The position numbers were made by a program, and so were the translations under genes. Shown in pieces: positions 23,218 to 49,582 of a DNA stretch of 64,000 nt (position 1 is the stretch's first letter; every line of letters starts with the position of its first letter). This stretch comes from Alphaproteobacteria bacterium (GTDB taxonomy: Bacteria > Pseudomonadota > Alphaproteobacteria > UBA828): the NCBI GenBank assembly GCA_965214705.1, contig CBDCCI010000002.1, positions 1,248,001 through 1,312,000 on the forward strand. Direction: 5' to 3'. The notes under the pieces were generated by a model. It did no database searches, had not been told where the DNA came from, and saw only the letters and a list, made by a program, of their open reading frames with translations.

Positions 23218-23433
23218 GGAGTGTTCTCGGGAAGTGGGGATCGTTGATATGTCATAGGCGCTTCATGCGTATTGTCAAGCATATGTTGTATGTCTGTTCT
23301 CAATTCGCTCAACCCGTGCCCCGGCTCATCCACACGTCACTTCCGTAGCGTTTGTCGACTCCCCCACGAACTGGTGAGTTCGTCTGCTAAGTCGAGTCAC
23401 CCCCTTCCCCTTGGACGAACCGGCACGACAGAT

Positions 23434-25929: not shown

Positions 25930-27252
25930 ATGGAGCGTCCCAAGATCAAGCGGCGCGAGCGCGACACGATCATCCAGGCATTGAGCGCAGGCGTCGTGCC
26001 GAAGCTGGGCCTGCGCCATATCCAGGTCGGGCGTGCACGAGAGACCACCGAAATGGTCCGCGATGTCGAACGGATCGGCGAAGGGGGCGCCGCGATCCGC
26101 TTCGTGATCGGCGAATACGGATCGGGCAAGACATTCTTTCTCAATCTCGTTCGACTCATCGCTTTGGAGAAAGGCCTCGTCGTGCTCTCAGCGGACCTTG
26201 CGCCCGACAGGCGTATCCACGCCACAGGCGGGCAGGCCCGTTCGCTGTACGCGGAGCTTACGCGAAACGCAGCGACTCGCACGAAGCCGGAGGGCGGCGC
26301 GCTTGCCAGCGTGGTGGAAAGGTTCGTCACCCAGGCGGTCCGGGAGGCGGACTCTTCCGACCGGACGGCCGACGCCGTGATCCGAGATAAGTTGGAGCAT
26401 CTCGAGGAACTGACGGGCGGATACGAGTTTGCCACCGTCATCGCCAGATATTGGGAAGGGCACGAAACCGGCGAAACCGAACTGAAGTCGAATGCGCTGC
26501 GCTGGCTCAGGGCCGAGTTTGCGACCAGGACGGATGCGCGCAAGGCCCTGGGTGTTCGCACGATCGTCGACGACGCCGGCGTCTACGATCACCTGAAGCT
26601 CATGTCCGCATTCGTGCGCGAGGCGGGCTACGGCGGATTGCTGGTGGAGCTCGATGAACTCGTAAACCTCTACAAGCTCACCAACAGCCAGGCCCGGAAC
26701 GCCAACTACGAGCAAATCCTCCGAATCCTGAACGACGTTCTCCAGGGTAGTGCCGCGCATCTCGGCTTCATCCTCGGTGGCACCCCCGAGTTTCTTATGG
26801 ACACGAGGCGGGGCCTCTACAGCTATGAAGCGCTCCAGTCGCGGCTTGCGGAGAACACCTTTGCACGAGACGGCCTGATCGATCTGTCCGGGCCGGTCCT
26901 GCGTTTGTCCAGCCTGACGCAGGAAGACTTGTTCGTGCTGCTTGCCAATGTCAGGCGCGTGTTTCTGGGAGACGAAGTTGACGGCGCGCCGGACGATGCC
27001 CTGACGGCCTTCATGGCGCATTGCTCACAGCGGATCGGTGATGCGTATTTTCGGACACCGAGAAACACGGTCACTGCGTTCGTGAACATGCTCTCGATCA
27101 TCGAGCAGAACCCCGGGACCACGTGGCAGGACCTCGTCGCCGATGTCGAGATCACGGCGGATGGCGGCGATGACTTGAGCGACATCGTCAACGACAAGAC
27201 GTTGAAGACCGCGCCACAGGGTGACGATGACCTCACCACCTTCCGTCTCTAA
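25930..27252 (+). CDS. sngB: Shango SngB: DUF2791/BrxD-like P-loop ATPase
   Basis: ALSAGVVP, GEYGSGKTF, LDELVNL, GLYSYEALQSRL; lies between the TerB gene and a helicase. Confidence 0.85.
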   Translation: MERPKIKRRERDTIIQALSAGVVPKLGLRHIQVGRARETTEMVRDVERIGEGGAAIRFVIGEYGSGKTFFLNLVRLIALEKGLVVLSADLAPDRRIHATGGQARSLYAELTRNAATRTKPEGGALASVVERFVTQAVREADSSDRTADAVIRDKLEHLEELTGGYEFATVIARYWEGHETGETELKSNALRWLRAEFATRTDARKALGVRTIVDDAGVYDHLKLMSAFVREAGYGGLLVELDELVNLYKLTNSQARNANYEQILRILNDVLQGSAAHLGFILGGTPEFLMDTRRGLYSYEALQSRLAENTFARDGLIDLSGPVLRLSSLTQEDLFVLLANVRRVFLGDEVDGAPDDALTAFMAHCSQRIGDAYFRTPRNTVTAFVNMLSIIEQNPGTTWQDLVADVEITADGGDDLSDIVNDKTLKTAPQGDDDLTTFRL

Positions 27253-29482
27253 CGGTGAATCCAAGGCGTTCGATCTTCTGGCAGAGCCTGTTCGACGCTG
27301 GATCTGGCAGAAGAGGTGGACTTCGCTGAGGGACATTCAGGAGCGCGCGATTCCGTATCTCGTCGATGGCGACGACGATCTCATCATTGCGGCCGCGACC
27401 GCAGGGGGAAAGACCGAAGCGGCGTTCCTTCCGCTGATCTCGAAGGCCTTCACGGCCGGAAGTGGCGAGGGCTTCGAGCTGGTCTATGTCGGTCCCCTCC
27501 GCGCCCTGATCAACGATCAGTTCCGGCGGCTTGAAGACTTGTGCGAGTCTCTGGAAATGCCGGTTCATCCCTGGCACGGCGACATCTCGCAGTCTGTGAA
27601 GGCGCGCGCCAGGAAGAACCCGCGCGGTATCCTGCTGATCACCCCCGAATCGCTCGAAGCCATGTTCGTCCTGCGCGGTGCGGACGTGCCCCGCCTCTTC
27701 GCAGGCACCCAGGCCATTGTGATCGACGAGCTTCATGCGCTGCTCGATTCCGAACGGGGCGTTCATCTGCGCTCTCTGCTGACCCGGCTCGAACTCGCAG
27801 TCGGCCGTCGAATTCGGCGCGTCGGGTTATCGGCGACCCTGGGCGATATGGCGCTGGCCAACGCCTATCTGCGCCCCGAGGCGCCGGAGAAGGTGGGACA
27901 ACTGGTCAGTCGCTCCGATGGGCAGGAGCTGCGTGTTCAACTGCGCGCTTACATCGAAGGCCGACGGACGGAGCACTCCGACACGGAAGACGACCAAGCA
28001 GACGATGCCAACGTGCAGGATCTAGCCGCGACACGGGCCGTTGGCGAGCACATCTTCGACAAGCTTCGGGGAAGCAACAATCTCGTCTTTGCAGGGTCCC
28101 GCGGACACGTCGAACTCTATGCCGACCTGTTGCGCCGGATGTGCGAAGAGAAGCGTCTGCCCAACGAGTTTTTCCCCCATCACGCCAGCCTGTCGCGGGA
28201 ACATCGCGGCTTCGTCGAGAAGCGCCTCAAGGACGGCGGCCTCCCGCTCACGGCGATCTGCACGTCGACCCTGGAACTCGGGATCGACATCGGCGACGTG
28301 ACATGCGTCGGGCAGATCGGCGCGCCGTGGTCGGTCGCCGCATTGAAGCAACGGCTGGGCCGGTCGGGCCGGCGGGCTGGTCAACCCTCGATCCTGCGCA
28401 TGTATGCCATCGAACCTGAGACCGAGGCAGACTCGCACCCCGTCGACACGTTTCATCTGGGCCTGGTGCGCTCGATTGCCATGGTTGAACTGCTAGTCGA
28501 GGACTGGTGCGAGCCACCGAAGCCGGAGGCGTTTCACCTTTCGACGCTGACGCACCAGATCCTCTCCGTGATCGCGGAACGCGGGGGCGCATCGGCGCAG
28601 CGGCTCTTTGCGACCCTGTGCGACCGCGGCCCGTTTCGGTCGGTCGATCCCGCGCTGTTCGGCCGGCTCTTGCGCCAGCTTGGCGACCCCGACGTTGCCC
28701 TGATTGAGCAAGCGCGCGACGGTACGCTTCTGCTAGGCCGCGAGGGCGAGCGCGTTGTCGAGCATTACAGCTTCTACGCGGTCTTTCAGACACCCCATGA
28801 GTATCGTGTCGTACACGATGCGAAGACGCTCGGCACGATCCCCGTCAATGCGCCGCTCACAGCGGACATGACCATCATCCTAGTCGGCAGGCGTTGGCGC
28901 ATTCTTGAGGTTCACGACCGAGATAAGGTCATCGAAGTGGTTTCGGACCGTGCCGGCAAGCCGCCGACCTTTGGCGGAGACCCGGGAGAAATTCATGAGA
29001 AGGTGATTCAAAGAATGCGAGAGGTGCTGCTCGCCGATTATCTGCCGTCTTTTCTCGACGATACCGCAGTAGAAGTGCTTTCCTCCGCCAGAGCCGCCTA
29101 TCGACGATCCAGACTCGATGACGTACCCGTTCAGCCGCTCAGTGATGATCGGCATCTTCTCGCGCCATGGACGGGAACGGTTGGCATCGACTCGCTTGCG
29201 ATCGTGCTGGCTTGCCTCGATTATCGCGTCAGCAAATTCGATGGCATTCTCGAAGTCTCGTCGACCGGATCCAGATCAGGGAGCTTTGTTTCGGAGCTCG
29301 AAGATATCGCGGCGGACAAGATCGACTTGCCCGATCTCATACGAGGTCGCGCCGGCGCATTGCTCTTCGAGAAATTCCATCAGTATCTCGGAGATGATCT
29401 GTTGCTTGCCGATGCGCTTTCCCGACGACTGGACTTGAATGCGGCGCCAAGGATCGCCCAAGACTTGTGCTCGCGGTTATAG
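27221..29482 (+). CDS. sngC: Shango SngC: Lhr-like DEAD/DEAH helicase
   Basis: ATAGGKTEAA, IDELH, LSAT, TSTLELGIDIG, QRLGRSGRR; overlaps sngB. Confidence 0.85.
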   Translation: MTMTSPPSVSNGESKAFDLLAEPVRRWIWQKRWTSLRDIQERAIPYLVDGDDDLIIAAATAGGKTEAAFLPLISKAFTAGSGEGFELVYVGPLRALINDQFRRLEDLCESLEMPVHPWHGDISQSVKARARKNPRGILLITPESLEAMFVLRGADVPRLFAGTQAIVIDELHALLDSERGVHLRSLLTRLELAVGRRIRRVGLSATLGDMALANAYLRPEAPEKVGQLVSRSDGQELRVQLRAYIEGRRTEHSDTEDDQADDANVQDLAATRAVGEHIFDKLRGSNNLVFAGSRGHVELYADLLRRMCEEKRLPNEFFPHHASLSREHRGFVEKRLKDGGLPLTAICTSTLELGIDIGDVTCVGQIGAPWSVAALKQRLGRSGRRAGQPSILRMYAIEPETEADSHPVDTFHLGLVRSIAMVELLVEDWCEPPKPEAFHLSTLTHQILSVIAERGGASAQRLFATLCDRGPFRSVDPALFGRLLRQLGDPDVALIEQARDGTLLLGREGERVVEHYSFYAVFQTPHEYRVVHDAKTLGTIPVNAPLTADMTIILVGRRWRILEVHDRDKVIEVVSDRAGKPPTFGGDPGEIHEKVIQRMREVLLADYLPSFLDDTAVEVLSSARAAYRRSRLDDVPVQPLSDDRHLLAPWTGTVGIDSLAIVLACLDYRVSKFDGILEVSSTGSRSGSFVSELEDIAADKIDLPDLIRGRAGALLFEKFHQYLGDDLLLADALSRRLDLNAAPRIAQDLCSRL

Positions 29483-29858
29483 CAACGTCGATCTGGGTGT
29501 AGGTCTGACATGGGGATCGTAAGACATTGATTCACTGCGATAGGCGGGTGGCAGAGGGCACGCCGCGGCCACCTGTGCCATGATATTCCCGTGGCGTTCC
29601 GATCTCGCGCCAATGCGCTGCATTCTGCTCACCCGGTGGGGGTCAGGCAGTCGATATCCGGCCACCAAATGTCAGCGGCACGCCGTCGAAAAACGCCACA
29701 GCGCACTTGCCTCACCTCTGCTTGACGTCAAGGTGACGCGCCCGCGCCCTTTACATTCCGGCCGTGCCGACCGGCAACGGGCAGCAATTCGGTGCGCCTG
29801 CTGCCGTCAAGCGCTTCGAGGAATGCCTTGCCGGGAGGCCGAGGGTGGGTACTAGGGA

Positions 29859-30260
29859 CTACTTGGACGCGTCGCCCAGGACGTGAGCCTCGGCATCCCG
29901 CGCAGCCTGAACCGTACGTTCGAGTTGTTCCTGCCGCCCTTCGCGGATCATATCGTCCCGCTTGAGCGTCGAAAGGATGTAGGCGCTGCGATAAGTGCGC
30001 TTGACCAGCTCGAGCATGCCGGGCGGAAGGGCGCCGTCCGAGGCCTCCGCGGGTTCGACTAAGGCGTTCAGGACGGCGTTGCGCGCAAAGGTGGCCGTCG
30101 AAATGTTGGCTGCTGCTGCTGCGCGCTGGACCTTCGCCCACTCGGCATCTGTGAACCTGACGGTTCGCGGCGAGCGAGTCCCGGTCGGTTTTTCATCGAC
30201 TTTGGCCTTGGAGGGGGGTCCTGTCTTGCTCTTTTTCGTCACGATAGCGCTCTCCCGCAA
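29859..30260 (-). CDS. Small hypothetical protein, possible ribbon-helix-helix (MobC-like)
   Basis: RTVRFTDAEWAKVQRAAAAANISTATFARNAVL fits a strand-helix-helix pattern. Confidence 0.6.
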   Translation of the reverse strand: MRESAIVTKKSKTGPPSKAKVDEKPTGTRSPRTVRFTDAEWAKVQRAAAAANISTATFARNAVLNALVEPAEASDGALPPGMLELVKRTYRSAYILSTLKRDDMIREGRQEQLERTVQAARDAEAHVLGDASK

Positions 30261-31255
30261 CGCGATCTCGCTGGGCGTTCATCTTTTCGCGCCCCGGATT
30301 GCGGACATGTGTCGCCCTATCAACCCGTTCAAGTCGCGTGTTTCAAAGAACTACGAACCGCTTGGTGTCGCAAAACGCCTTCGTATTTCAATGTATTTCT
30401 ACATGTCAAGACATGCGTCCAATCAGGTGGCTAAGAGCCGTATTTCAATGTACTTCTCTCGTTCCAACGCCACCGCCAGTGGATTCGCTACAATTTTGTC
30501 CTCTCGTGTCCGGCCATGACAGGCTATGTCGCCTCAAAATAGCTCTGCGCCTTCAGGCGCGTGGGGTGTGAGGGTTAAAGCGGCTCCGCCGTAGAGCCGG
30601 GACTTGAGGGGGGCGAGAAGAGGGGTCAGGGCCAGCCCTGATTCGAAGGCGGGGAGGATAGTCTGCGGCAGGCGGTCGTGCGACCGCGGCGACCAGGCGA
30701 CGGTTGGCCGGACGGCAACCGGGACGAAGTGCAGAAGCTCGCGATCGCGAGCGGCGCAGTGGGTCGATCACCATGTTGGTCGCGAGTGTCGGGCGTGGTG
30801 ACGCCGGGCCGTTCAGGCCCGGCTGCACCAATGTCCGGCGAGGTGTCACGGCGCTCGTCGCCATCGGCGACGGCACTGACGGGGAGCCTGCACGGGGAGC
30901 CTGCACGGGGGTCTCGCAGTTCGTCTCGCGGCGGTAAAGTTCAGCACAGCGACAACGGCTGCACTGTCGGTCGCAGCTTCGCCATCGTTGTCGTCATCGT
31001 CACAAGCGAAATGGCGAGACCGATGCACGCGCCGGTACACCGGTCGGCGACGGCGACGTGAAGCTGGAGCGCGGGCGAGGGCCGCGCGGACGTCACCGCG
31101 GTCGGTCTCGCTGCCATGAGGCGAGCGTCCGTTGACGGTGCGCAGCACCGTGACGGCGGCGATGCCGAGGCCGCGTCCGGGAGGGTTGGCCGTTCGAGCG
31201 CGAGCGGCGCAGGCGCGGATGCGCCGAGCCGCGATGCGGGGTGGCAGGCACGGCG

Positions 31256-31296
31256 AAAAAGGGGGAGCCGATCGCCGCAGAGGCAGCGATCGGCTC
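31256..31296 (-). terminator. Rho-independent terminator after the DUF2493 gene
   Basis: GAGCCGATCGC/GCGATCGGCTC stem followed on the minus strand by CCCCTTTTT. Confidence 0.7.
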
Positions 31297-31319
31297 GTAG
31301 TGGACAGGTGGCGCCATCG

Positions 31320-32246
31320 TCATGCGGCGAGCTGAACCTTCATGACCGGTATCCCCAGCTGCCGAGCTTTGTCGACGAGGTTGCCGGTGATGCCGGAGCC
31401 GGGGAACGCGATGACGCCCTTGGGCAGCAGGTTGAGCAGGTCGTCGTTGCGACGGAAGGGCGCGGCCTTGCCGTGGGCGTTCCAGTCGGGGCGGCAGATG
31501 ACCTGGTTGACGCCTCTGGCCTCGGCCCAGCTTGCCGCGATCTTCTCGACGCCGGGACCGCCGCCATGTAGCAGCACCATGTCGCCGTACTTCGCGCGCG
31601 CCATGTCGAGCGTGCTCCAGACCGCGTCGGCATCGCTGACGGTCTTGCCGCCGGTGACGGCGACCAGGGTGCCCTCGGGCAGGTGCGCGCGGGTCTCGCG
31701 GTCCTTGCGTGCGCGCCTGAAGTCGCGTGCGTCGATGGCGGCGGAGGTCAGCGTGCCGGTCTGGCTCGCGTGCGATCCGTGCCTTGGGCGCCAGACGTCG
31801 CCGGTCTCGACGCGGTAGGCGTCGGCGGCGAGGTCGCGGAGCTTCTCGAAGGCGTCGCGGCGGTCGCCGAGGTTCTGCGCACGGTCCGTGAGGGTCTGCA
31901 GCTCCCACGCCTTGACCTCCGATCCGTCCTGCGCCTTCTCGAGGTCCTTCATCTCGGGCGCGATGCGGTCGACGGCGCGGTCGAGGCGTGTGACCTGTGA
32001 GTGCAGCATGTTGGTCAGGCCCCACATCAGCGGCTCGCGCTCGTCGGCCATCTGAGTGCCGTCTACGGTGATGCCGTCGACGATGACGCGGATGGCTTCG
32101 TTCAGCGCATCGATGGCGTCGTCCTCGTCCCAGACGACGCGGCTGTCGAGCTCGCCGCGCTCGGGGCTTGCGCCGTAGAGGGCCATGCTGTCGCAGACTG
32201 CAGCGGTTGCTGACGCGGTCGGGGTAGCGTTTGTGGTGTCGATCAT
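31320..32246 (-). CDS. DUF2493 (YspA/SLOG-like) plasmid/ICE protein
   Basis: WRPRHGS, VAVTGG, LLHGG, HGKAAPFRRND, IAFPGSGITGNLVDKARQLGIPV; AGGGAGG RBS. Confidence 0.85.
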   Translation of the reverse strand: MIDTTNATPTASATAAVCDSMALYGASPERGELDSRVVWDEDDAIDALNEAIRVIVDGITVDGTQMADEREPLMWGLTNMLHSQVTRLDRAVDRIAPEMKDLEKAQDGSEVKAWELQTLTDRAQNLGDRRDAFEKLRDLAADAYRVETGDVWRPRHGSHASQTGTLTSAAIDARDFRRARKDRETRAHLPEGTLVAVTGGKTVSDADAVWSTLDMARAKYGDMVLLHGGGPGVEKIAASWAEARGVNQVICRPDWNAHGKAAPFRRNDDLLNLLPKGVIAFPGSGITGNLVDKARQLGIPVMKVQLAA

Positions 32247-32297
32247 GTCGACCTCCCTTGTTTCATCCCTCTGGATGTTCATCCTCCGGGGCCCAGT

Positions 32298-32696
32298 GCC
32301 CCTTCGTGATGTCGTTTCTCTTCACGCGCGCGCAGTGGAAGCACCTGGCCCTAGATGGTCTTAGGCGGGAGTCGGTGCGGAACGTCGCCGATGTTGGTGC
32401 GGAAGTTGGCGTTCTTCGATCCTGGGAGGCCCGGCGCGCCGCCTCGGTGACTGGCCGCGTTTCGAGTAGGCCTTCTCAAGAACTGCTAGCGCCGGGCCGA
32501 CGCGCCGGCCCCGCGCAAGGGGCCGGTGCGCCACACACTCGGCGTTGGAGAGTTCTGGCAAGCCAACTTCACGGTCGGCGACGTTCACGGCCCGCCTTAG
32601 AGCATCTTGGGCCAGGCCGCAGGGAGCGGAGCGACCGGAGGACCCGCAGGGTTGCTGGAATGAGCACGCGTGACATCCTGCGACATCACGACGGGG
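32298..32696. promoter_or_regulatory. Long nested inverted-repeat structure; candidate single-stranded-DNA promoter (Frpo/ssi-like)
   Basis: Five nested complementary arm pairs in mirror order plus two inner hairpins, directly upstream of the DUF2493 gene; function inferred. Confidence 0.6.
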
Positions 32697-32747
32697 TGGC
32701 TATTCTCTCCCCACGCACGGTCTCCGTTTCTGTTGTGCCTGCCGGCA

Positions 32748-32981
32748 TCACGACCAGAGTGGGTGTGAGCGGATACGCTGCTCGGCCACCTCGCGAATGC
32801 GCGAGCGGTCGTGCACACGCACCGGGCCGCGGGGATCTTCGTCAAGATGGATCACGAAGAAGGACGAACCCGGGTGAAGGATGTCGGGATGACGGAAGAG
32901 GTCGCCGACGTGATCGCCGTCGGCGTCGAGGATGCGAGCCTCGTCGTCGCCGACGCGCGTGAAGGTGATGGTGCTGCTCAT
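32748..32981 (-). CDS. Hypothetical protein, 77 aa
   Basis: AGGAG RBS before ATG; protein-like sequence MSSTITFTRVGDDEARIL. Confidence 0.6.
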   Translation of the reverse strand: MSSTITFTRVGDDEARILDADGDHVGDLFRHPDILHPGSSFFVIHLDEDPRGPVRVHDRSRIREVAEQRIRSHPLWS

Positions 32982-33079
32982 GCTGCGCTCCTGGCGTGAT
33001 GGCGGCGGGGAGAAACCTCTCTCCCTCTCTGCGCCGCTCGCCCGGCGCCTGCTCTTCTCCGTCTCTGGCCGGGCGATCG

Positions 33080-34069
33080 TCACCACCGGTCCCCGGCGCT
33101 GACCCGGCGGCAGAAGATCGGGGCGAGCCTGGCGCGAATCGCCGGCGCGCCGAGGGCGACGAGATCGCTGTTGAAGTCATCGCCCGCGGGCGCGACGACC
33201 AGTGCGGCGACCCTCGCGCGTGCGCAGCGCCGGGCGAGGCGCTCGGCTGCGCGCTCTCCCTCGGGGTCGTTGTCGCGCGCGATCACCAGCCGCGTGACGC
33301 CGGCAGGCGGCGCGAATGCGCCGAGGCTGCCGGCGGACAGCGCCGCGGCAGCAACGGTGTCGGGGATGGCGGTGACGATGGACAGCACGGTCTCGATCCC
33401 CTCGCCGACCAGCAGCGTGCCGGCGCCGGGAGCGCCGAAGCGGACGGCCAGTCCGTGGACGCGGCCGAGCGCCTTGCGCGGGCACGCCACGGGCGCCTTG
33501 GCCGGGCGCGAGGGATCGAGCCAGGTGCGGTGGACGCCGGTAACGGATCCGCCGGTGCCGGTCACGGCGGCGACCAGCGCCGGCAGGCGGCGCACGCCGC
33601 CGCCGTCGCGGTAGAAGAGCGCGGGGTGGAAGCGGAGCGCGGGGAAGCGGCAGCGATGGACATGCCTGGCGCGCAGATAGGCCTCGGCATGGGTGCCGTC
33701 GATGGCGCGGCAGCGCTGCCACAGGCGGCGTGCCGCCTCGGTGGCGTCGTAGGCGTCGCCCGGGCCCGCAGCCGGCACAGCCGGCCGGGCGAGGAAAGCG
33801 CGCGCCTCGTCGAGCGCCGCGCGAAGCGTCGGCGCGCAGGTGCGACGGCGGATGATGTCGAGCAGATCGCCATGCTCCCCCGTGGCTGCATCGGTGAACT
33901 TCCCCGGCGGACCTGGAGGCGCGAGGCGGACGAAGAGGGATCGCCCGCGCCCGCCGTCGAGGTCGCCCGCGACCCAGTACCGGCCCCGGCGGCGCCCGTA
34001 GGGCAGGTATCGGCGGCAGACCTCTTCGGCGCGCTCGGCGAGCGCTGCGGCGACGGAAGCCGCGTTCAT
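33080..34069 (-). CDS. Toprim-domain DNA primase-like protein of plasmids/ICEs
   Basis: TGEHGDLLD, AEAYLRAR, GVHRTWL, VGEGIETVLS, IARDND, DFNSDL. Confidence 0.88.
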   Translation of the reverse strand: MNAASVAAALAERAEEVCRRYLPYGRRRGRYWVAGDLDGGRGRSLFVRLAPPGPPGKFTDAATGEHGDLLDIIRRRTCAPTLRAALDEARAFLARPAVPAAGPGDAYDATEAARRLWQRCRAIDGTHAEAYLRARHVHRCRFPALRFHPALFYRDGGGVRRLPALVAAVTGTGGSVTGVHRTWLDPSRPAKAPVACPRKALGRVHGLAVRFGAPGAGTLLVGEGIETVLSIVTAIPDTVAAAALSAGSLGAFAPPAGVTRLVIARDNDPEGERAAERLARRCARARVAALVVAPAGDDFNSDLVALGAPAIRARLAPIFCRRVSAGDRW

Positions 34070-34274
34070 GGCGCACACTTCTGGATCAAGCGGGAATCGG
34101 CGAAGCCGGGACTGTCGGCGGTGATGGGGCGCATGAGAGACCTCTCCGGACGCTGCGTGGGACGCGCCCCGGTCCCGGCCTCGACCGGCCTCTCGCCGGC
34201 GCCGGAACGGCAGGCGCCGCGCGAAGCGCACGGCGCGCCATCCGGCCCGTGAGGGACTCGGATCGGGCTGCACG

Positions 34275-34313
34275 AAAAAGCCCGCCCCGCGCGGGAGGAA
34301 CGCGGGGCGGGCT
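34275..34313 (-). terminator. Rho-independent terminator after ssb
   Basis: 13-bp stem AGCCCGCCCCGCG/CGCGGGGCGGGCT followed by a T-run on the minus strand. Confidence 0.75.
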
Positions 34314-34354
34314 CTGGGGCGAGCGGGCGGGGAAGGCCCGCTGCGGGGACAGGC

Positions 34355-34798
34355 TCAGAACGGGATCGAACTGCCCTGGTCTGCAGCCACGGCCGAACCG
34401 TTGGCCGGCTCCGCCGTGTCGGCCGCGCCGTTGCCGCTGGCCCCGGCAGGACGATCGAGGAACTGCACGCGGCCACCGGGCACGAGGAGGATCTCGGTCG
34501 AGAACCGGTCGCTGTCCTCACCGTCCTTGCGCCACTTCCTGGTCTGCAGCTTGCCCGCGACGTAGACCAACCGGCCCTTCTTCGCGTGCTTCTCCAGCAT
34601 GTCGATCAGCCCGCTCTGGAAGCTGACCACCCTGTGCCACTCGGTCCGATCCACCCGCTCGCCGGATTGCCTGTCGATATAGGATTCGTCGGTCGCCACC
34701 GACATATTGGCGACGCGCCCGCCGGAGGCGAGGTTGCTGATGGTCGCATCGGCGCCCAGCCGGCCGATGATCTGAGCGGAGTTGAGTCCGAACGCCAT
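34355..34798 (-). CDS. ssb: Single-stranded DNA-binding protein
   Basis: IIGRLGAD, RTEWHRVV, KGRLVYVAGKLQTRKW, C-terminal IPF. Confidence 0.93.
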   Translation of the reverse strand: MAFGLNSAQIIGRLGADATISNLASGGRVANMSVATDESYIDRQSGERVDRTEWHRVVSFQSGLIDMLEKHAKKGRLVYVAGKLQTRKWRKDGEDSDRFSTEILLVPGGRVQFLDRPAGASGNGAADTAEPANGSAVAADQGSSIPF

Positions 34799-35041
34799 GA
34801 TCGTGTCTCCTTGCGATTCGAGTTGATGACGAAGGTTGACGAGCGGGCTGGAGCCTCTCCTCGGCCCCGCCCTGCTCACCTTCTCCAAGCCTCACTTCAC
34901 TCTCGCCTGCGGCCTGCTCCGAGGCCCGCCGGGTTTACGAGGCCTCGCGAATCGCACGGCCGGTGACTGCCGTGGCGCCGGTTCGGGATCGCGATTGACG
35001 GGAGCGGGCTCACCTTCGGAAGGCCCGCGGCGGGTCCGCGC

Positions 35042-35851
35042 TCATGACGGCGATAGAGCCATCAAGGGAATGTTGGAGCGGATCTCGACTTGCTCGGGGC
35101 GCAGGTGGGCGAAGGCGATGCAGGCGGCGGCCTCGGATTCGGTCTCGAAGACGCCCAGCTCGTCGCCCGTCTCCAATTCGATCACGGTGATCTGCGGCGG
35201 CCAGAGCGCCGCCAGGTGTCGCTCGGGCGCGCGGGAATTGGACCGATATGCGCAGCGCTCACAGCGGGCCGTGCCACCGGTGCGGACCCCACAATCCACA
35301 CACGCGCCCTGCGCGCGCCTCGCGGCATAGCGCTTCTTCCCGGCAGCGCTCGCTCGGTCGGGACAGACGCGCTCCTTCTCCAGTGCGAGGCAGCGGCCGC
35401 AGCGCGACAGGCCCCCGACCGTGGGCTGGTTGCAGCGCACGCAACTGTCGGCAGCGCGCCGCGCGTCATAGCGCCGGCGGTCGCGTGCGCGCCGCTCCTC
35501 GCGGCACGGCTCGCAGACGGAGCGGTTCTCGTCCGGCCGACGGAGGCCGCAGGACGTGCAGAGTCCCGCCTCCTGACGCGCCCGGCGGCGGCGCCTGTCG
35601 CCGGCGCGGTCGGCTCTGCGGCAGCGCTCCGGATCGCGGCCGCCATATTGCTGGCCCTCGCCGCGGGCCTTCGCCCGGCGGGCGCGCTCGGCGGCGCGGC
35701 GCTTCTCGGCACAGCCTGTACACACTTTGCGACCGGGCTCGGGAGGAAGCCGGCCGCAGCGAGTGCAACGGCCGCTGGCGGTGCGCGCGGCGTGGCGCTG
35801 GCGGAGGCGGCGATCCCGCGCCTTCTTCTTCACCGGGTCCTTGAGCGGCAT
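35042..35851 (-). CDS. Arg-rich protein with four repeated C4 zinc-finger-like modules and a NUMOD1-like C-terminus
   Basis: Eight CxxC motifs in four pairs separated by basic helices; tail VIELETGDELGVFETESEAAA. Confidence 0.7.
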   Translation of the reverse strand: MPLKDPVKKKARDRRLRQRHAARTASGRCTRCGRLPPEPGRKVCTGCAEKRRAAERARRAKARGEGQQYGGRDPERCRRADRAGDRRRRRARQEAGLCTSCGLRRPDENRSVCEPCREERRARDRRRYDARRAADSCVRCNQPTVGGLSRCGRCLALEKERVCPDRASAAGKKRYAARRAQGACVDCGVRTGGTARCERCAYRSNSRAPERHLAALWPPQITVIELETGDELGVFETESEAAACIAFAHLRPEQVEIRSNIPLMALSPS

Positions 35852-35866
35852 GACCGGCCACCCCGG

Positions 35867-36193
35867 TCAGCGCGCGTGGCGCATGGCGCTCAACCCGCTC
35901 GCGGAAATCCCCCAAATCTGCACGCCCGACGCCTTGAGATCGAGCGCGGTGCAGACGATGATCTCGTCGCGCTCGGGCCGCAACTTCCTGACGGCGCCTG
36001 CGCTCACGATCGTGCGGCGCGGCCTGCGTCCGCCCTTCTTTGCCTTCGGCTGCCCGGCCTCGACCGGGTGGATCTGCCCGTCGGGCCGGGAGCGGTACTT
36101 CTCTACCACGTAGCGCTCCCCGTCGAGCCCCCGCCCGAAGACGTGGACCAGGAACGTGTGCGCGTTGCGATACGACGGCCGGCGAATCTGCAT
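35867..36193 (-). CDS. Hypothetical protein, 108 aa
   Basis: GGGGAGG RBS before ATG, same strand as neighbours; no recognisable motif. Confidence 0.45.
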   Translation of the reverse strand: MQIRRPSYRNAHTFLVHVFGRGLDGERYVVEKYRSRPDGQIHPVEAGQPKAKKGGRRPRRTIVSAGAVRKLRPERDEIIVCTALDLKASGVQIWGISASGLSAMRHAR

Positions 36194-36540
36194 GGCCTGC
36201 CTCCCCTTCGTCTGATGTGCCGACGGCGGGGACCCGCTCCGCAGCGCCGCCCCCACCGCCCGCGTCACGGCCGGCCTCTCGCTCGCAGCGGCGCAGAAGC
36301 GTGTGGCGGCGGAAGGACGACGGGGAGGCGGCGGGGCGGAGGCGGGTGGGAGTGACGGACACCGCCGTTTCGTCATCCGGGGGACGGCCGGGGCCGCTTA
36401 CGAGGCGTCCGCCGGTCTGTCACCGCGGGCCGGCCGTGGCTATGATGACGGCCCTGCGGCGGAGACCATCCCGCCGCAGTCATTCGGGTTGCCCGGCGGC
36501 GGGTTGGCCCAGGCAAATCACACAAGGCAGGTCGTTCGGA

Positions 36541-37383
36541 ATGCTGGAAGGCGGTTCAGGATCGGCGCCCGGCGCCACAGTCGTTGCAACAGTGAAGTGG
36601 TTCAATCCGGTGAAGGGGTTCGGCTTCCTTACGCCCGTCGACGGTTCGCCCGACGTCTTCTGCCATGTCTCGGCGGTGTCGCGGGCGGGCTTTGACACTC
36701 TTCCCGAGGGCGCGAGCGTAACCTGTCAGGTCGAGCAGGGCCGTCAGGGTCCGCAGGTCTGGCAGATCCATGCCGTCGATACGTCGACCGTGACCGCGAG
36801 CCCGACGAGGGGCGGCGGGCCGCCGCGCGGCGATTACGGACATGGTCACGGCGAGCGGGGTCCTGCTTCCGGCCGCCGCGTCGTGGCTGCCGTGAAGTGG
36901 TTCAATCCGGCGAAGGGTTTCGGCTTTCTGGTTCCCGACGACGGCTCGCCCGATGTGTTCTGCCATGCCTCGGCGGTCCGGGACGCCGGGTACGACACGC
37001 TCCCGCAGGGCGCGACCGTGACCTGCGAGGTGACGGAAGGCCGGCAGGGTCCGATGGTTTCGTCCATCGTCGCCGTCGATGCCTCGACCGCCATGGCCCA
37101 ACATGCGGACCGCGACGAGCCGTACCGCGACCGGCGTGAACGAGGGTGGGACCGCGACCAGCCGGCCGGGCCGGTCGAGGAGCGTTCCGGCCTGGTCAAG
37201 TTCTACAACGCCGCCAAGGGATACGGCTTCGTGGTTCCGGACGACGGCGGGCCTGACGTGTTCCTGCACGGGAGCGTGCTCAACCGGGCCGGCCTGGGCG
37301 CGCTTGAGCCGGGCGAGCGGGTGAGCGTCATGGTGGAGCAGGGAACGCGCGGCGCGCAGGCGAGGGACATCGAGCTCATCTGA
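36541..37383 (+). CDS. Cold-shock protein with three tandem CSD domains
   Basis: Three copies of VK(W/F)(F/Y)N..KG(F/Y)GF..P.DG.PDVF.H (RNP1/RNP2). Confidence 0.9.
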   Translation: MLEGGSGSAPGATVVATVKWFNPVKGFGFLTPVDGSPDVFCHVSAVSRAGFDTLPEGASVTCQVEQGRQGPQVWQIHAVDTSTVTASPTRGGGPPRGDYGHGHGERGPASGRRVVAAVKWFNPAKGFGFLVPDDGSPDVFCHASAVRDAGYDTLPQGATVTCEVTEGRQGPMVSSIVAVDASTAMAQHADRDEPYRDRRERGWDRDQPAGPVEERSGLVKFYNAAKGYGFVVPDDGGPDVFLHGSVLNRAGLGALEPGERVSVMVEQGTRGAQARDIELI

Positions 37384-37471
37384 GGCGGAACGGCCGCCGC
37401 GCGCCGGTACGTCTCACATGCCGGGATGTACGGCCGGAACGCGAGCGCCGATTCGGCAGGGTGGCGTGGAG

Positions 37472-37813
37472 CTATTCCACCATCCGCTTGAGGCCCGCCA
37501 GGACGCGGACCTTGACCGCCGTGGACGCTGGCTTTGCAGCCACCTGTATCTCCTCGCCGGTGCGCGGCGAGATCATCGTCCGCGCCTTGGTGGCAGGCTT
37601 GCGTACACGCATGACCCTGAGCAAGCCGGGAAGCGTGAAGGTGCCGACGGCGCGCTTCTTGATGTGGCGCTCGATGAGAATGCCCAGTTCGTCGAGCACC
37701 GCAGCGACGTCCTTCTTCGGAAGCCCGGTCGACTCCGAGAGCGAGGCCAGCAGCTGCGTCTTGGTCATCGCTTCCCTGAGCGCGGTGGCCTTGCGGTGAG
37801 TTGAAGTTGCCAT
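37472..37813 (-). CDS. HU/IHF-family DNA-binding protein (divergent HU-like)
   Basis: MTKTQLLASLSESTGL, FTLPGL, ISPRTGEEIQVAAKPAS..VKVR. Confidence 0.85.
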   Translation of the reverse strand: MATSTHRKATALREAMTKTQLLASLSESTGLPKKDVAAVLDELGILIERHIKKRAVGTFTLPGLLRVMRVRKPATKARTMISPRTGEEIQVAAKPASTAVKVRVLAGLKRMVE

Positions 37814-38298
37814 GTTTCGGGTCTCTGATGGTGGGGCTGGGGCGGCTGCATACTACGCCGGCGAGCGGGCGCCAAGGGACGCTGGTCCCTACCGGAGCCC
37901 CACCGGCGTCTTCCCGCTCCGGGAACCTCTTCTCGGCCGGCAGGTACACAACCAGGCCCGAGGGATCGCTGGCGGCAACCGGTCCCGCGTTGCCGCCGGC
38001 CGTCGCCGCCACGCCGCGGGCCGTGAGCGCGGGCGACCGCGTCGGTGAATTGCGAATCGGATGTTCGGCGGCCGAAGAGTGGGAGGGAGGCACAGGTGCG
38101 TCAGCGTCACGGTCTGCTCAATGGATGGGCGCGGGTAGTTTGCCGGGGATGCTGTGCAGGTGAGAGGCGGATTGCTCGCGGCGGACGCAGGCCACGGATG
38201 CCGGACTCTGCCCACGGTCCGATCCCGCCCGGAGATGCCGGTGCGGCGGCGCCGACGGTCCGAGTCCCCACCGCCCGGCCGCAGCCGCTGCGCGCTTC

Positions 38299-39891
38299 CT
38301 ACTCGGCGTCCGGCCAGGCGTCCTCGTCCGGAAGCCCTATCGCGAAACCGTATTCCTCCATCTGCCAGGCCGCGATGCTGGCGGAGAGGACGTGCTCCAT
38401 GATCGGCACCTTCTTCAGCGCCCAGCCGTCGAGCAGTGCGTCCGCCGTCGCTGCGAAGGACCGCCACTCCCCGCCCCTGCTGCCGGCCCTCAGGACATGC
38501 GCCGTCCTCAGCATGAGAAGCGCCCAGTAGTCGCGACGCTCCTCCAGGCGGGTCCACAGCGCCGCTTCCAGCTGCCGCGGGCCGGGCGCGTCATCCAGCG
38601 CCTCGTCCACCACAGCCGTGCCCTCGCTCCAGGTGGACACCAGCGCGTGGTCGAGCGGCCACTGCGCGCTGCGGCCGACCAGAACTCTCCGCTCGCGGGC
38701 CGAGAGCCCGGCGACCTCGCCGCCGGGATCGGCGAGGGCCGTCCATTCCGGCACGCCCATCGGCCGGGGCCGCAGATCGTCGATGCCGCACGCGCCTGCC
38801 ACGTCCAACAGTCCCGCGGCAGGCGGGCGCCCAGTGATCAGCCCGTCCGCCAGCGCAGCCGTCAAGACCGTCTCAAGCGCCGGCCAGGCCACCTCGAAGC
38901 CGCCGGACTCGGCGACGTGAGACGGCACGACGTCCTCGATACCGTTCCCCTGCGCCAGGAAGGCGTCCTTCACTCCCTCGCCTGTCTTGAGCAGCACCAG
39001 CGCCGCAGCGGGGCCGTTCCCGCCCTCGAGCGCCGCCGCGAAGGACTGGCCGCCCGTGCCGTCCGGCACCGTGCCGAACAGCTGCAACCGGCGCAGGCCA
39101 TGTTCCTCCAGCGGTCCCACCGGGCCGCGCCGCCGCGCCTCGCGCAGCGCCGTGTCGAGAAGCGGGCGCGTGCCGTCGGCGGGAAGCCAGCTCCGGATGA
39201 GGGGCAGCGCTGCCGCCGAACCGGGGTCGAGGGTGCCCCGCCGCGCCCGCTCGCCCAGCCCCCCGGCGGCGGCGAGACGGACCTCCGACGCCGTATGCAG
39301 AAGCCAGTACAGCGCCAGATGGCCGCACCACGGCTCGTCCCGGCCCGCGACACGGTGGACGAAGCCCGGCCGGAGCGGCGCAGGAAGCAGACCCAGCAGG
39401 TCTTCGAGCATCGCGTACAGGCGGTAGGTGTCGCCCTCCGCCTGCCGCCGCAGGTCGTCAAGCTCGGCGTCGAGGTCGCCGGGATAGCCGCGGCTCTCCG
39501 CCTCGTCCGCAATGGAGGCAAGGAGGAATGAGGCCAGGGCCTCGGGCGCGTCGATCTCGGCGCGGGCGTAGGCGCGAGCGAGCGACAGGGCGGTCTCAAG
39601 ATCGAGGCCCCCGGACGCGGCCAGCCCGTCGATCGTCCCCTGCGCCTCTGCCAGGAAGCGCTCGCCCAGGCGCCCCCCGCTCTCCCGGTCCAGCCGGGCG
39701 TGCTCGACCAGGGCCTCGAACAGGCGCATTCGCCGCTCCGGGTCCCACCGGGGGTCCAGAAGCAGCGCAGTTGTGATCCCCGGCGCTCCCAGGAGCGCCG
39801 GGGCGTGGTCCATCGCAGCGCGCATCGCGGCCTCGGCATCGTCGCCTGCGAGCTCGTCCAGCCAATCGGGGCCGGTATCGTCGTCCGGCAT
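38299..39891 (-). CDS. Hypothetical protein, 530 aa
   Basis: Long ORF with normal amino-acid composition; no family recognised. Confidence 0.7.
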   Translation of the reverse strand: MPDDDTGPDWLDELAGDDAEAAMRAAMDHAPALLGAPGITTALLLDPRWDPERRMRLFEALVEHARLDRESGGRLGERFLAEAQGTIDGLAASGGLDLETALSLARAYARAEIDAPEALASFLLASIADEAESRGYPGDLDAELDDLRRQAEGDTYRLYAMLEDLLGLLPAPLRPGFVHRVAGRDEPWCGHLALYWLLHTASEVRLAAAGGLGERARRGTLDPGSAAALPLIRSWLPADGTRPLLDTALREARRRGPVGPLEEHGLRRLQLFGTVPDGTGGQSFAAALEGGNGPAAALVLLKTGEGVKDAFLAQGNGIEDVVPSHVAESGGFEVAWPALETVLTAALADGLITGRPPAAGLLDVAGACGIDDLRPRPMGVPEWTALADPGGEVAGLSARERRVLVGRSAQWPLDHALVSTWSEGTAVVDEALDDAPGPRQLEAALWTRLEERRDYWALLMLRTAHVLRAGSRGGEWRSFAATADALLDGWALKKVPIMEHVLSASIAAWQMEEYGFAIGLPDEDAWPDAE

Positions 39892-40069
39892 GGGTCCGCT
39901 TTCCCGTCAGTCCCTGAAAGTGCCGCCGGCAACTTGCGAACACTGCGGCCGGAACGTGCACCGCCCGGTGCAGGGCAGCCGGAGACAGGAAGCCGCCCGG
40001 CGCCTCCGGGAACTGTGCCTGTTCGCCTTCCCGGGACTGGCGGTGCCGCAGGCGGCCGATAGTGGGGAA

Positions 40070-40459
40070 TCAGTCATCATCGCCGTCCGTTCTTCCGGGA
40101 GGCTTGAGAGGCACCATCAAGTCGGCGTCCAGCTTCGGCTCGTCCCACGCCCGGACGGAGGATTCCCAGAACCCCAGCATGGCCTGGAATTGCGGATCGT
40201 CGATCTTCGCATGGAACGTGTAGAGGCGGTCGACAACTTGCCGCATCAGATCGCGCATCGCGTCGTCGTCGAAATGGGACACGCGCGGCCACGGTATTCG
40301 CTGTCCGTCGGCGTCGACGACCGTCACGTCCGAGTAGTCGCCGGTGCGGGTGACCGGGACGATGCCGGCGTGGATGTCCTCGAGCTTCGTGTTGCGGACG
40401 CAGGTCAGGGCCATCAGCTTGGCTACGATCGACAAGGTCTGTCGCTCACTTTCGTTCAT
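40070..40459 (-). CDS. Hypothetical protein, 129 aa
   Basis: GGAGG RBS; protein-like sequence CVRNTKLEDIHAG..IPWPRVSHFDDDAMRDLM. Confidence 0.7.
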   Translation of the reverse strand: MNESERQTLSIVAKLMALTCVRNTKLEDIHAGIVPVTRTGDYSDVTVVDADGQRIPWPRVSHFDDDAMRDLMRQVVDRLYTFHAKIDDPQFQAMLGFWESSVRAWDEPKLDADLMVPLKPPGRTDGDDD

Positions 40460-40857
40460 GGCCCCCGCCTCCCGCGCCCGGGTCGTCCGCCGGGGAAGGT
40501 TACTGGAAAAGGGAGGGTGCGGCGACGTGGCGGAGGAGGTTCTGGCGGTCCTGCATCGGGCGGCGATGCATCCGCTGCTGCCTGGGCCTACCGGCATCGA
40601 AGGCGGAGCCTCGCCGCTTCGCAATCGAGAGGTCCGTGCTGAAGGCGGATCGGCTTGTCGCGGACGCGTGGCAGGCCCCTGCCGCGAGGTGGACGCCTCC
40701 TTGAATCGCACCGGACCCTTGCCTATAGCTTCGGGCGCCGGACGGGCGATTCGGAGGACGATCCGGGGCTGCGTGCGGGAGCGAACCCGTTACTTCGTTC
40801 AGTGCGGATGCCGGTCCGGTCGAGTGGCCTGTTCGCAGGCGGAGAGGTTCGATCCTC

Positions 40858-41726
40858 ATGGCCGATAGCCTCGATCCTATCGCAGGGCTCGACGAGAGCG
40901 CCCCCGCCAGGAAGCGCAAGCCCCAGCGCAAGGCTGCGCGGAAGGCGCCGCGCTCGCCCGGCCGGCGGTCGAAGGCGAGGGCGCCCGCGCCTCAGCCCGC
41001 GCCGCCCGGCAACGGCGACTACACTGCGCGCGACATCGAGATTCTGGAAGGGCTGGAGCCGGCGCGCCGCCGGCCCGGCACGTATGTGGGCGGCACCGAT
41101 CAGCGGGCGCTGCATCACCTGCTGGCCGAGCTCATCGACAACGCGATGGACGAGGCGATCGCCGGCCACGCGAGCCGGATCAAGATCGCGCTCTACGACG
41201 ACGGCTCGGCCTCGGTCAAGGACAACGGCCGTCGCATCCCCGTCGACCCGCATCCAGGTACGAGAACGTCTCGGCGCTGCAGGTGATCCTGACCACACTG
41301 CACTCGGGCGGGAAGTTCGGCGACAAGGTGTACGCGGCCTCGGGCGGCCTGCACGGGGTCGGCCTCTCCGTGGTCAACGCACTTTGGGAGCGGCTGACGG
41401 TGGAGGTCGCGCGCGACAGGCGGCTGTGGCGGCAGTGCTACGCGCAGGGCACGGCAGCCGGCCCGTTGGAGGACGCCGACCGCGACCGGCTGCTGGAGAG
41501 CGACTTCGCCGGCGCCGGCAAGGTCGAGATCAGCCGTTTCAAGGGGCTGGGCGAGATGCCGCCGGCCCAGCTCAAGGAGACCACCATTGACCCGGCGCGG
41601 CGCACGCTGCTGCGCGTCGAGGTTGCCGAAGACGCAGGCACGGCCACGGCGCACCGGGTCGAGGAACTGATGGGCCGCCGCCCGAATCCCGCCTTGCCTT
41701 CATTCAGAGCCACGCCGGCCAAGTGA
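40858..41726 (+). pseudogene. parE: Topoisomerase IV subunit B remnant (frameshift plus large internal deletion)
   Basis: [49 protein letters not shown] joined directly to the C-terminal [16 protein letters not shown]; transducer and most of Toprim absent. Confidence 0.85.
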
Positions 41727-49533: not shown

Positions 49534-49582
49534 CTCCGCTCCCCCTCTAGTTCGAGCCTCGAGTAATCGCACGGCAGCGAAC

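Follow-up and report, generated by a model that had tools for sequence, protein, structure and literature searches.

The DNA considered here is a 64,000-nt window of contig CBDCCI010000002.1, from the 7.92-Mb, three-contig genome of an uncultured alphaproteobacterium of the lineage UBA828. Upstream of its gene for a DUF2493/YAcAr (SLOG-family) protein lies a single rod-like imperfect hairpin, at 32299-32696, with two apical branches and one side branch on the 3' arm. The question raised by this locus is what such a structure does at this place, and on which strand. A sequence-only reading of the window had offered two answers, namely a promoter that forms on single-stranded DNA (ssDNA), or a new structured RNA. 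The observations are the structure of the hairpin, its covariation, the strand that is selected, the conserved and oriented promoter elements, and the gene neighborhood. Of the two answers the first is the better supported: we consider it probable (about 0.7) that the hairpin is an ssDNA promoter of a conjugative element, similar in kind to Frpo of plasmid F and not homologous to it. The sequence supports this prediction along four independent lines. The grounds are covariation between the arms, selection of the + strand, conserved promoter elements, and a setting that resembles a leading region. The structured RNA, which would be made from the - strand, fares less well, since the wobble pairs favor the template strand of DUF2493.

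Folding and covariation of the hairpin

Both strands of region 32280-32715 were folded as ssDNA and as RNA, as the sequence-only reading had suggested, and compared with shuffled sequences. As ssDNA, the + strand, on which DUF2493 has its template, folds at -125.4 kcal/mol, against a mean of -97.9 ± 3.8 kcal/mol for dinucleotide shuffles (z -7.24), and none of 100 shuffles equals it; the - strand folds at -117.9 kcal/mol (z -4.84). Folded as RNA, the + strand has a z-score of -5.99, and the - strand, at -220.2 kcal/mol, one of -5.48. The nested arms that had been listed from the sequence were recovered by the computed folds, namely the outer arms (32300-32314/32681-32695 and 32323-32331/32664-32672), the middle arms (32344-32369/32591-32616, 32380-32391/32575-32586 and 32402-32410/32562-32570), and the inner hairpins near 32428-32498 and 32501-32530 (32428-32437/32489-32498 and 32501-32512/32519-32530). 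In a scan of 29000-41000 for inverted repeats, the pair 32344-32369/32591-32616 (26 nt, 88% complementary) is third among the 25 longest pairs listed, and the inner pair 32428-32447/32492-32511 is also among these; none of the remaining pairs on that list lies inside 32299-32696, and by our reading of the list they form no comparable nested rod. A cmscan search of 31000-34000 against Rfam (E <= 10), likewise suggested beforehand, gave four weak chance matches, none of them inside the hairpin; that is, no covariance-model match to it was found.

Several parts of the rod are strongly conserved. The 5' arm contains an invariant CACGCGCGCGCAG at 32323-32335 (alignment columns C33-G45 of the first sequence), and the side branch of the 3' arm contains a conserved GGAGGACCC motif. 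At 32642-32645/32649-32652 there is an invariant mini-hairpin, ACCC/GGGT (helix 10), with 100% of its cells paired; three copies carry insertions that make it longer without loss of the pairing. In the upper rod, an invariant GGTGCGG at 32396-32402, with a second copy at 32374-32380, faces CACGGYC at 32570-32576 and 32586-32592.

The sequence-only reading had proposed an alignment of the regions upstream of DUF2493 homologues as a test of whether the pairing is conserved. We aligned 52 distinct copies, from this genome, from its genus, and from seven genomes of other genera, and derived a consensus structure of 116 pairs from single-sequence folds. As controls, the partners were slid by 1-3 columns, and the columns were shuffled 500 times. 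Standard pairs fill 90.4% of the cells over the 116 pairs and 52 copies, compared with 36.0-41.9% for slid partners, a figure that is favored because the structure was derived from the same 52 sequences. The count of pairs changed on both sides is not favored in this way, and amounts to 66 of 116, compared with 16-28 when the partners are slid. The covariation score is 0.206, against 0.024-0.055, and none of the 500 column shuffles reaches any of the observed covariation measures. An earlier count on 44 copies had given compensatory changes in 53 of the 116 pairs, and at several pairs of helices 3 and 5 all of GC, CG, AU and UA are exchanged for one another. Thus, the pairing proposed from one sequence is conserved among the homologues.

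The same alignment discriminates between the strands. The paired columns contain 286 cells with G.T and 55 with A.C, which would be the wobble pair on the opposite strand; base composition would lead one to expect an excess of only about 1.4:1. Pairs with any G.T number 46, and those with any A.C number 20. The share of standard pairs decreases from 90.4% on the + strand to 85.7% on its complement. The folding energies of ssDNA point the same way: the + strand minus its complement gives a mean of -15.0 kcal/mol, negative in 18 of 18 copies, compared with -3.2 kcal/mol for a 420-nt control in the same orientation in a neighboring gene body. The + strand is the more stable in all copies from this genome among those listed, and other genomes and plasmids agree, in all 39 of the upstream regions folded. 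By these sequence measures, the strand selected to fold is the + strand, i.e., the template of DUF2493 and not the mRNA strand, a result that speaks against an element in the leader RNA as well as against a symmetric site in duplex or cruciform DNA.

The structured-RNA alternative can be stated more precisely in this light. The - strand would carry an RNA element, either in the leader of DUF2493 or in read-through from ssb and the toprim gene, where it would serve for attenuation, for stabilization or for cleavage by RNase III. The strong RNA fold of the - strand, and the position of the hairpin between co-directional genes, are what such an element would predict. The wobble intermediates, though, favor the other strand, the share of standard pairs falls on the - strand, Rfam holds no match to the hairpin, and the conserved hexamers described below would be unexplained. 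We regard this explanation as very improbable indeed.

Predicted promoter elements in the 3' arm

Read from loop to base, the 3' arm contains TTG(C/G)(C/T)(G/A), a 16-nt spacer that ends in TGn, and a hexamer NANNNT. The spacer measures 16 nt in all 44 regular-expression matches. We predict that these are the -35 hexamer, the TG of an extended -10 element, and the -10 hexamer of a sigma70-type promoter. The positions at which sigma70 is strictest are the TTG of the -35 element, the TG of the extended -10 element, and A-11 and T-7, the two bases that are flipped out. These are the positions that do not vary here: TTG, TG, A-11 and T-7 are each invariant in 52 of 52 copies, and GTG (G380 T381 G382) forms invariant columns in the alignment. 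The other positions of the -10 hexamer (1, 3, 4 and 5) each show three or four bases, with position 1 being C in 32 copies, G in 13, A in 6 and T in 1.

The pairing of these elements also follows a pattern. The first T of the -35 hexamer, T32652, belongs to the mini-hairpin, where A32642 is its partner, and 32653-32657 are paired to 32339-32343 (helices 2 and 10); the mini-hairpin thereby abuts the -35 element, and the upper rod emerges between it and the rest of the -35 pairing. A continuous promoter duplex would need the mini-hairpin to be stacked on the lower stem, and such stacking is assumed in our model. The lower stem of the window copy has its largest unpaired patch at 32674-32679, facing 32315-32321, and this patch is the predicted -10 hexamer. 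The base opposite A-11 is G in 26 copies, C in 12, A in 7 and T in 7, and is thus complementary in 7 of 52; opposite T-7, it is T in 35, G in 9, A in 5 and C in 3, complementary in 5 of 52. When 45 copies are folded singly, A-11 lacks a partner in 35 of them, and T-7 in 34, with a G.T pair at T-7 in 10 others. The pairs that flank the hexamer covary (helix 1).

A separate set of loci from metagenome-assembled genomes (MAGs) carries the same elements. This set comprises 80 named loci, of which 76 have at least 330 nt of upstream DNA. The strict motif, with the hexamer left free, is found in 53 of these 76, all 53 with A2, T6 and TG, and a fuzzy motif, with A2 and T6 likewise, in 9 more.

Since the hexamers on the 3' arm read from loop to base, the template on the folded strand continues into DUF2493. 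An ordinary duplex promoter for this gene would instead lie on the complement of the 5' arm; by our reading of the alignment, GTGCTT stands there at the place of the -35 element and the A/T pattern is absent. A strict scan of 31200-33200 on both strands found no promoter-like site, and hence no consensus promoter for DUF2493 on the - strand. Were the hairpin used as predicted, the bases at which the template is first copied would be 32307-32310 on the 5' arm, and the leader would extend for about 60 nt to the ATG at 32246.

In duplex DNA, the hexamers of the + strand point to higher coordinates, and this raises the alternative of a conventional promoter that fires rightward, yielding an antisense RNA to the small open reading frame (ORF) and the toprim gene, with the repeat serving as a protein site or cruciform. 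Extended -10 promoters can work despite a weak -35 element, and this general property would suit such a promoter. It would leave three things unexplained, however: the covariation between the arms, the tolerance of wobble pairs on one strand, and the lack of complementarity at A-11 and T-7 amid covarying neighbors. In addition, the sequence beyond the stem base (right of 32697) is poorly conserved by our reading of the alignment, which argues against a conserved rightward transcript, and none of the + strand ORFs in 32748-34888 passed a screen based on G+C content at third codon positions. We therefore consider a rightward promoter very unlikely as the explanation of this element.

Genomic setting and distribution of the copies

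The 22 hairpin loci in this genome, which are 75-100% identical, each stand immediately ahead of a DUF2493/YAcAr gene, always in one orientation, and the far side of the hairpin usually carries the small ORF, toprim and ssb. Those among the copies listed all fold as rods. A search of this genome found no copy away from DUF2493 at E <= 1e-5. The sequence-only reading had named a dispersed miniature inverted-repeat transposable element (MITE) as the finding that would overturn it; because all 22 copies share one position relative to DUF2493, the element is not a dispersed MITE. More generally, a selfish palindromic repeat, whether a MITE or similar to repetitive extragenic palindromes, could have come to sit there by chance, and the multiplicity of copies, with 22 loci here and many in related genomes, is what one would expect of it. 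The position and orientation relative to DUF2493 are constant, nevertheless, here and in other genera, and the copies diverge along with the gene rather than being near-identical and dispersed. We find this explanation hardly credible.

Beyond this genome, the element is carried by 16 of 20 other genomes of the genus and by 1 of 16 genomes from the other genera of the family, the latter with a 270-nt version of the hairpin in unchanged synteny. With the DUF2493 protein as probe, a homologue was found in 22 of 300 other genomes of the class, and 36 upstream regions of such class-level homologues were retrieved for folding. Global minimum-free-energy folds of 700-nt upstream windows gave spurious long-range closures, and a rod measure and local folds were used instead. 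Homologous hairpins of 246-283 nt lie next to DUF2493 proteins of 60-71% identity in six further genomes. Homologues with 67-93% protein identity also occur in MAGs labeled Gammaproteobacteria, Candidatus Foliamicus, Candidatus Binatia and Dehalococcoidia (records L126, L137, L147, L148, L150, L152 and L083), with the hairpin promoter present in all of these loci but L083, where there is too little upstream DNA; this reflects either wide horizontal spread or binning errors.

DUF2493/YAcAr is found on 667 plasmid records. On plasmids of Sulfitobacter, Rhizobium and Agrobacterium, where the protein is 43-47% identical, the order is a strawberry-notch/methylase gene, toprim, a gap of 325-375 nt, and DUF2493, and the gap folds into a long hairpin; the same is true for further genome loci of this distant group. 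The hairpin of the distant group (L062-L075, L038-L040) carries GGCCGCGCC..TCGCGGCCTTCATGGCGACGA on its 5' side, CGATCGCCCTCT..GAAGGCC on its 3' side, and TATTTTG..CGCGATG..AAAG at its apex. At several of these loci, the outer stem is paired with the beginning of the DUF2493 coding sequence.

Some copies have been invaded by other elements. The hairpin copy at C3:2993321-2993911 of this genome, in whose numbering the window is C3:1248001-1312000, is interrupted right after the first GGTGCGGA, by an insertion that starts with GTGCG and looks like the 5' end of a group II intron. Behind the NikA-like gene, a group II intron reverse transcriptase/maturase was found in another copy (L037:6787-8097). 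At C1:2818000-2837000, what comes after NikA is a group II intron reverse transcriptase and an insertion sequence (IS), not a relaxase.

Within the window, the credible genes around the hairpin are all on the - strand (Table 1). The open frame of DUF2493 reaches 32282, but the ATG at 32246 is favored as its start because the ribosome-binding site ahead of it is conserved. This site had been placed about 40 nt beyond the stem base; the measured distance is 42 nt. The DUF7146/Toprim protein on the other side resembles the C-terminal part of the TIGR02760 TraI family, and one homologue is annotated 'DNA primase'. About 1 kb downstream of DUF2493, and on the same strand, is a NikA-like mobilization gene. 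The spacer between the two is a candidate region for the origin of transfer (oriT); it contains conserved blocks, but 30261-31319 folds no better than its shuffles, and no recognizable nick site (nic) was found in it. An AT-rich direct repeat, CGTATTTCAATGTAYTTCT, occurs at 30382-30400 and 30439-30457 in this otherwise GC-rich spacer, 120-200 nt upstream of the NikA-like gene, and is a candidate site for an oriT accessory protein, or a candidate promoter. The spacer block 30665-30897 matches two places per locus in several DUF2493 loci, e.g., C1:4084588-4084744 and 4084932-4085164, and is by these matches a repeated sub-element.

The relaxase, where there is one, is of the TrwC type. This genome has 36 matches to TrwC (PF08751), while searches for relaxases of PF03432 and PF03389 gave none. 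Three copies have TrwC on the strand of DUF2493, with its start 1.1-1.7 kb downstream of that gene. One annotated copy reads, in one direction, strawberry-notch helicase (1502 amino acids, aa), DUF4326, 2OG-Fe(II) oxygenase, ssb, toprim, the small ORF, the hairpin, DUF2493, 1.6 kb of spacer, and TrwC (1369 aa, C1:1386487-1390596). The relaxase operon enters the recipient last in F and R388. If this also holds here, the transferred strand would be the + strand of the window, i.e., the strand that folds.

An alternative is a single-strand initiation (ssi) site. Such a site would only prime synthesis of the complementary strand, through RNA polymerase or the Toprim/DUF7146 protein, and would have no role in making DUF2493 mRNA. 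The hairpin sits on the strand predicted to be transferred, a primase-like gene is immediately upstream, and the invariant GGTGCGG/CACGGYC of the upper rod is not explained by the promoter model; moreover, Frpo itself has been proposed as a source of primer RNA (PMC12672017). On the other hand, the invariant positions are exactly the sigma70 determinants, and the product would always be directed into DUF2493, about 40 nt from its ribosome-binding site, in 22 of 22 copies of this genome and alike in other genera. Priming and mRNA synthesis are also compatible, and this explanation is hence partly a sub-case of the ssDNA promoter. As an account that excludes DUF2493 expression, we deem it unlikely.

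A number of points weigh against the ssDNA promoter. The main one at the level of sequence is the weak match of the window copy to the E. coli hexamers: TTGCTG and CATCCT each agree at 3 of 6 positions, and the strict scan returned no site. In single folds, A-11 pairs with T in 10 of 45 copies. The motif is absent from 14 of the 76 named MAG loci, so the hairpin is not obligatory; by our reading, one of these loci runs into the end of its contig, two have suffered disruption or deletion, in about nine DUF2493 comes directly behind the small ORF with no hairpin between, and in two the sequence is unrelated and low in GC. In the distant plasmid group (42-47% identity), TTGC and the hairpin can be found, and no -10 hexamer with A2 and T6 could be placed. 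In double-stranded DNA, the same hexamers could fire rightward. Both nic and the transferred strand are placed from gene order only. The NikA-like gene of the window copy adjoins no relaxase and borders instead on a defense island, so this copy may be a relic. Finally, the only RNA runs that matched were contigs of coral and sponge metatranscriptomes (Logan), with shares of 0.38, 0.09 and 0.06; the matches are short fragments of a multicopy family that show neither starts nor strands and could be carried-over DNA, and they are thus silent on expression and habitat.

Table 1. Features of the hairpin and of the surrounding genes in the window.
Feature	Position	Strand	Remarks
Whole rod-like hairpin	32299..32696	+	Formed by the template strand of DUF2493, the predicted transferred strand; from folds, covariation and strand asymmetry
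5' arm	32299..32410	+	Would be the promoter template strand when folded, continuing into the DUF2493 template
Upper rod and apex	32344..32616	+	Covaries; centre variable in length; shorter in other genera
3' arm	32562..32696	+	Would be the promoter non-template strand when folded
Side branch of 3' arm	32617..32652	+	Conserved; no partner in 5' arm; small hairpin 32617-32620/32626-32629
Predicted -35 hexamer TTGCTG	32652..32657	+	TTG is T362 T363 G364
Predicted extended -10 TG	32671..32672	+	One base lies between it and the hexamer; alignment columns 555-556
Predicted -10 hexamer CATCCT	32674..32679	+	A32675 is A-11, T32679 is T-7
Predicted start region	32685..32688	+ (non-template numbering)	Placed by rule of thumb, some 7 nt past the -10
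DUF2493/YAcAr (SLOG-family) gene	31320..32246	-	PF10686, E 1.4e-23; would be transcribed from the hairpin
Ribosome-binding site GGGAGG of DUF2493	32252..32257	-	Equivalent GGAG before ATG in other copies
Terminator-like hairpin and T run after DUF2493	31265..31296	-
Small conserved ORF, 112 aa	32748..33086	-	Upstream of the hairpin; no family match
DUF7146 and Toprim protein, primase-like	33080..34273	-	PF23639, PF13362
ssb, single-strand-binding protein	34355..34888	-
Non-coding spacer, NikA-like gene to DUF2493	30261..31319	.	About 1 kb; candidate oriT region, predicted placement
NikA-like mobilization gene (oriT-binding type)	29859..30260	-	PF21983, 29.9 bits against a cut-off of 27
Defense island	8127-29482		Where the relaxase is expected, beside the NikA-like gene
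DEAD/MrfA-Zn helicase, 1878 aa	8127-13763
IS transposase	15327-16466
DruA	19164-20360
S24 peptidase	22471-23217
TerB-N/TerB-C protein	23272-25917
BrxC/D-type ATPase	25930-27252
DEAD helicase	27221-29482

Other features of the region may be mentioned here. An ORF with three cold-shock (CSD) domains, at 36040-37383 on the + strand, lies inside the island and opposite to the leading genes; it could be a nucleic-acid-binding protein. Genes that look split are found within 40858-41726, 48120-49599 and 49583-51244: HATPase_c and the C-terminus of GyrB are separate small ORFs, and a solute-binding protein and a BCCT transporter are each divided into two ORFs, which suggests pseudogenization. Many of the 36 TrwC matches and of the 22 DUF2493-hairpin loci are broken by IS elements or introns. 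Judged from these matches, the genome bears an unusually heavy load of related conjugative or mobilizable elements.

Proposed mechanism and relation to known ssDNA promoters

In the mechanism we propose, the + strand would enter the recipient with its 5' end first, from an oriT at the left, so that the order of entry would be DUF2493, the hairpin, the small ORF, the toprim gene and ssb. Once both arms were inside, the strand would fold, and the 3' arm would provide the non-template strand of a sigma70-type promoter with an extended -10 element. The invariant mini-hairpin would stack on the -35 duplex. Because A-11 and T-7, the bases flipped by sigma, are held mismatched, the -10 element would be pre-melted. 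Host RNA polymerase would then start about 7 nt past the -10 element, near the stem base, with the 5' arm as template, and transcription would leave the hairpin into DUF2493 before a complementary strand exists. Second-strand synthesis would part the arms; from then on the hexamers would point away from DUF2493, and early expression would end. The RNA born at the hairpin could also serve as primer for the second strand, a role proposed for that of Frpo too (PMC12672017). Three steps of this scheme are inferred: transfer of the + strand, use of its folded form by RNA polymerase, and inactivity of the double-stranded form.

A more elaborate version, which we put forward only tentatively and with more doubt than belief, is a device of two parts. 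The lower stem would be the ssDNA promoter, and the upper rod a second recognition site on the incoming strand, bound by the Toprim/DUF7146 protein or by TrwC through the GGTGCGG/CACGGYC bubbles and side loops of the GGAGCGGAGCGA type. If this were true, first transcription would be coupled to the start of the complementary strand, and the device would time its own shut-off. It would amount to a broad-host-range 'entry switch', passed on by transfer between bacteria of several classes that live with sponges and corals.

The likeness to known systems is one of layout. Frpo1 and Frpo2 of F, and ssi1-3 of ColIb-P9/pESBL, constitute class 1 of the ssDNA promoters as described in PMC9849209 and PMC12672017, which cite Masai and Arai 1997. 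Like these, the DUF2493 hairpin is a long imperfect stem-loop formed by the template strand of co-oriented leading-region genes, ssb included. Its stem rebuilds a -35 and a -10 element, and transcription, as predicted here, would exit the hairpin into the next gene. It would likewise lie near oriT, to judge from gene order, with the relaxase operon on the other side and in the same direction. In F, the leading genes are transcribed toward oriT, and the transferred strand is their template (PMC9849209); the gene order of the TrwC-bearing copy is that of the F plasmid.

The differences are as clear. When the 416-nt hairpin was compared by blastn ('distant' mode) with 72,556 plasmid records, which we take to include IncF and IncI plasmids, no match was found at E <= 1e-3. 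Since similarity in sequence to plasmid records is absent, the element is an analogue of Frpo and not a homologue. Unlike Frpo, it is found in uncultured Alphaproteobacteria and other MAGs, with a TrwC-type relaxase and with DUF2493/YAcAr as the downstream gene. Its predicted promoter is of the extended -10 type, with a weak -35 element and a variable -10 hexamer that keeps only A-11 and T-7. Also unlike Frpo are the three-way junction, with a mini-hairpin that abuts the -35 element, and the long covarying upper rod with its GGTGCGG motifs.

Such diversity has precedent, as ssDNA promoters are known in more than one class, the classes being unrelated in sequence (PMC12672017). The hairpins of class 2 (ardA/klcA) and class 3 (M.EcoGIX) of pESBL and F have no homology to Frpo; they were detected when the leading region was folded, and were confirmed by 5' rapid amplification of cDNA ends (PMC12672017). 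These belong to enterobacterial IncI1 and IncF elements. For the establishment genes of the pLS20 family of Bacillus plasmids, hairpin ssDNA promoters have been proposed (PMC6294495, PMC8708921). Here, too, leading or establishment genes would stand behind hairpin promoters, but in Gram-positive hosts and with unrelated sequences. A survey of leading regions searched intergenic stretches of 50-350 bp for BLAST similarity to any of five known sequences (PMC11541004), and would for this reason miss a 400-nt non-homologous hairpin; its main text contains neither 'Alphaproteobacteria' nor 'DUF2493'. In the literature searched, five papers were found to mention DUF2493, none with a title or abstract about conjugation. 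We thus predict that the DUF2493 hairpin is a new, non-homologous class of ssDNA promoter, relative to the classes described in these papers, whose supplementary candidate hairpins (PMC11541004, PMC12672017) were not compared.

ssDNA promoters allow a conjugative element to express its protective genes in the first minutes after entry, ahead of its conversion to double-stranded DNA. Within the literature searched, they have been shown for enterobacterial IncF and IncI plasmids only, and proposed for pLS20-like plasmids of Bacillus. If our prediction is true, the mechanism would extend to TrwC-type integrative or conjugative elements of uncultured Alphaproteobacteria, with related copies in MAGs labeled Gammaproteobacteria and Binatia, and DUF2493/YAcAr would probably be the gene expressed first, with a role in establishment or against defense. 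The features by which the element is recognized, namely covarying arms, wobble pairs on one strand, invariant TTG, TG, A-11 and T-7, and a mismatch at the two flipped bases, form a signature that is free of homology, and one that could find such promoters elsewhere.

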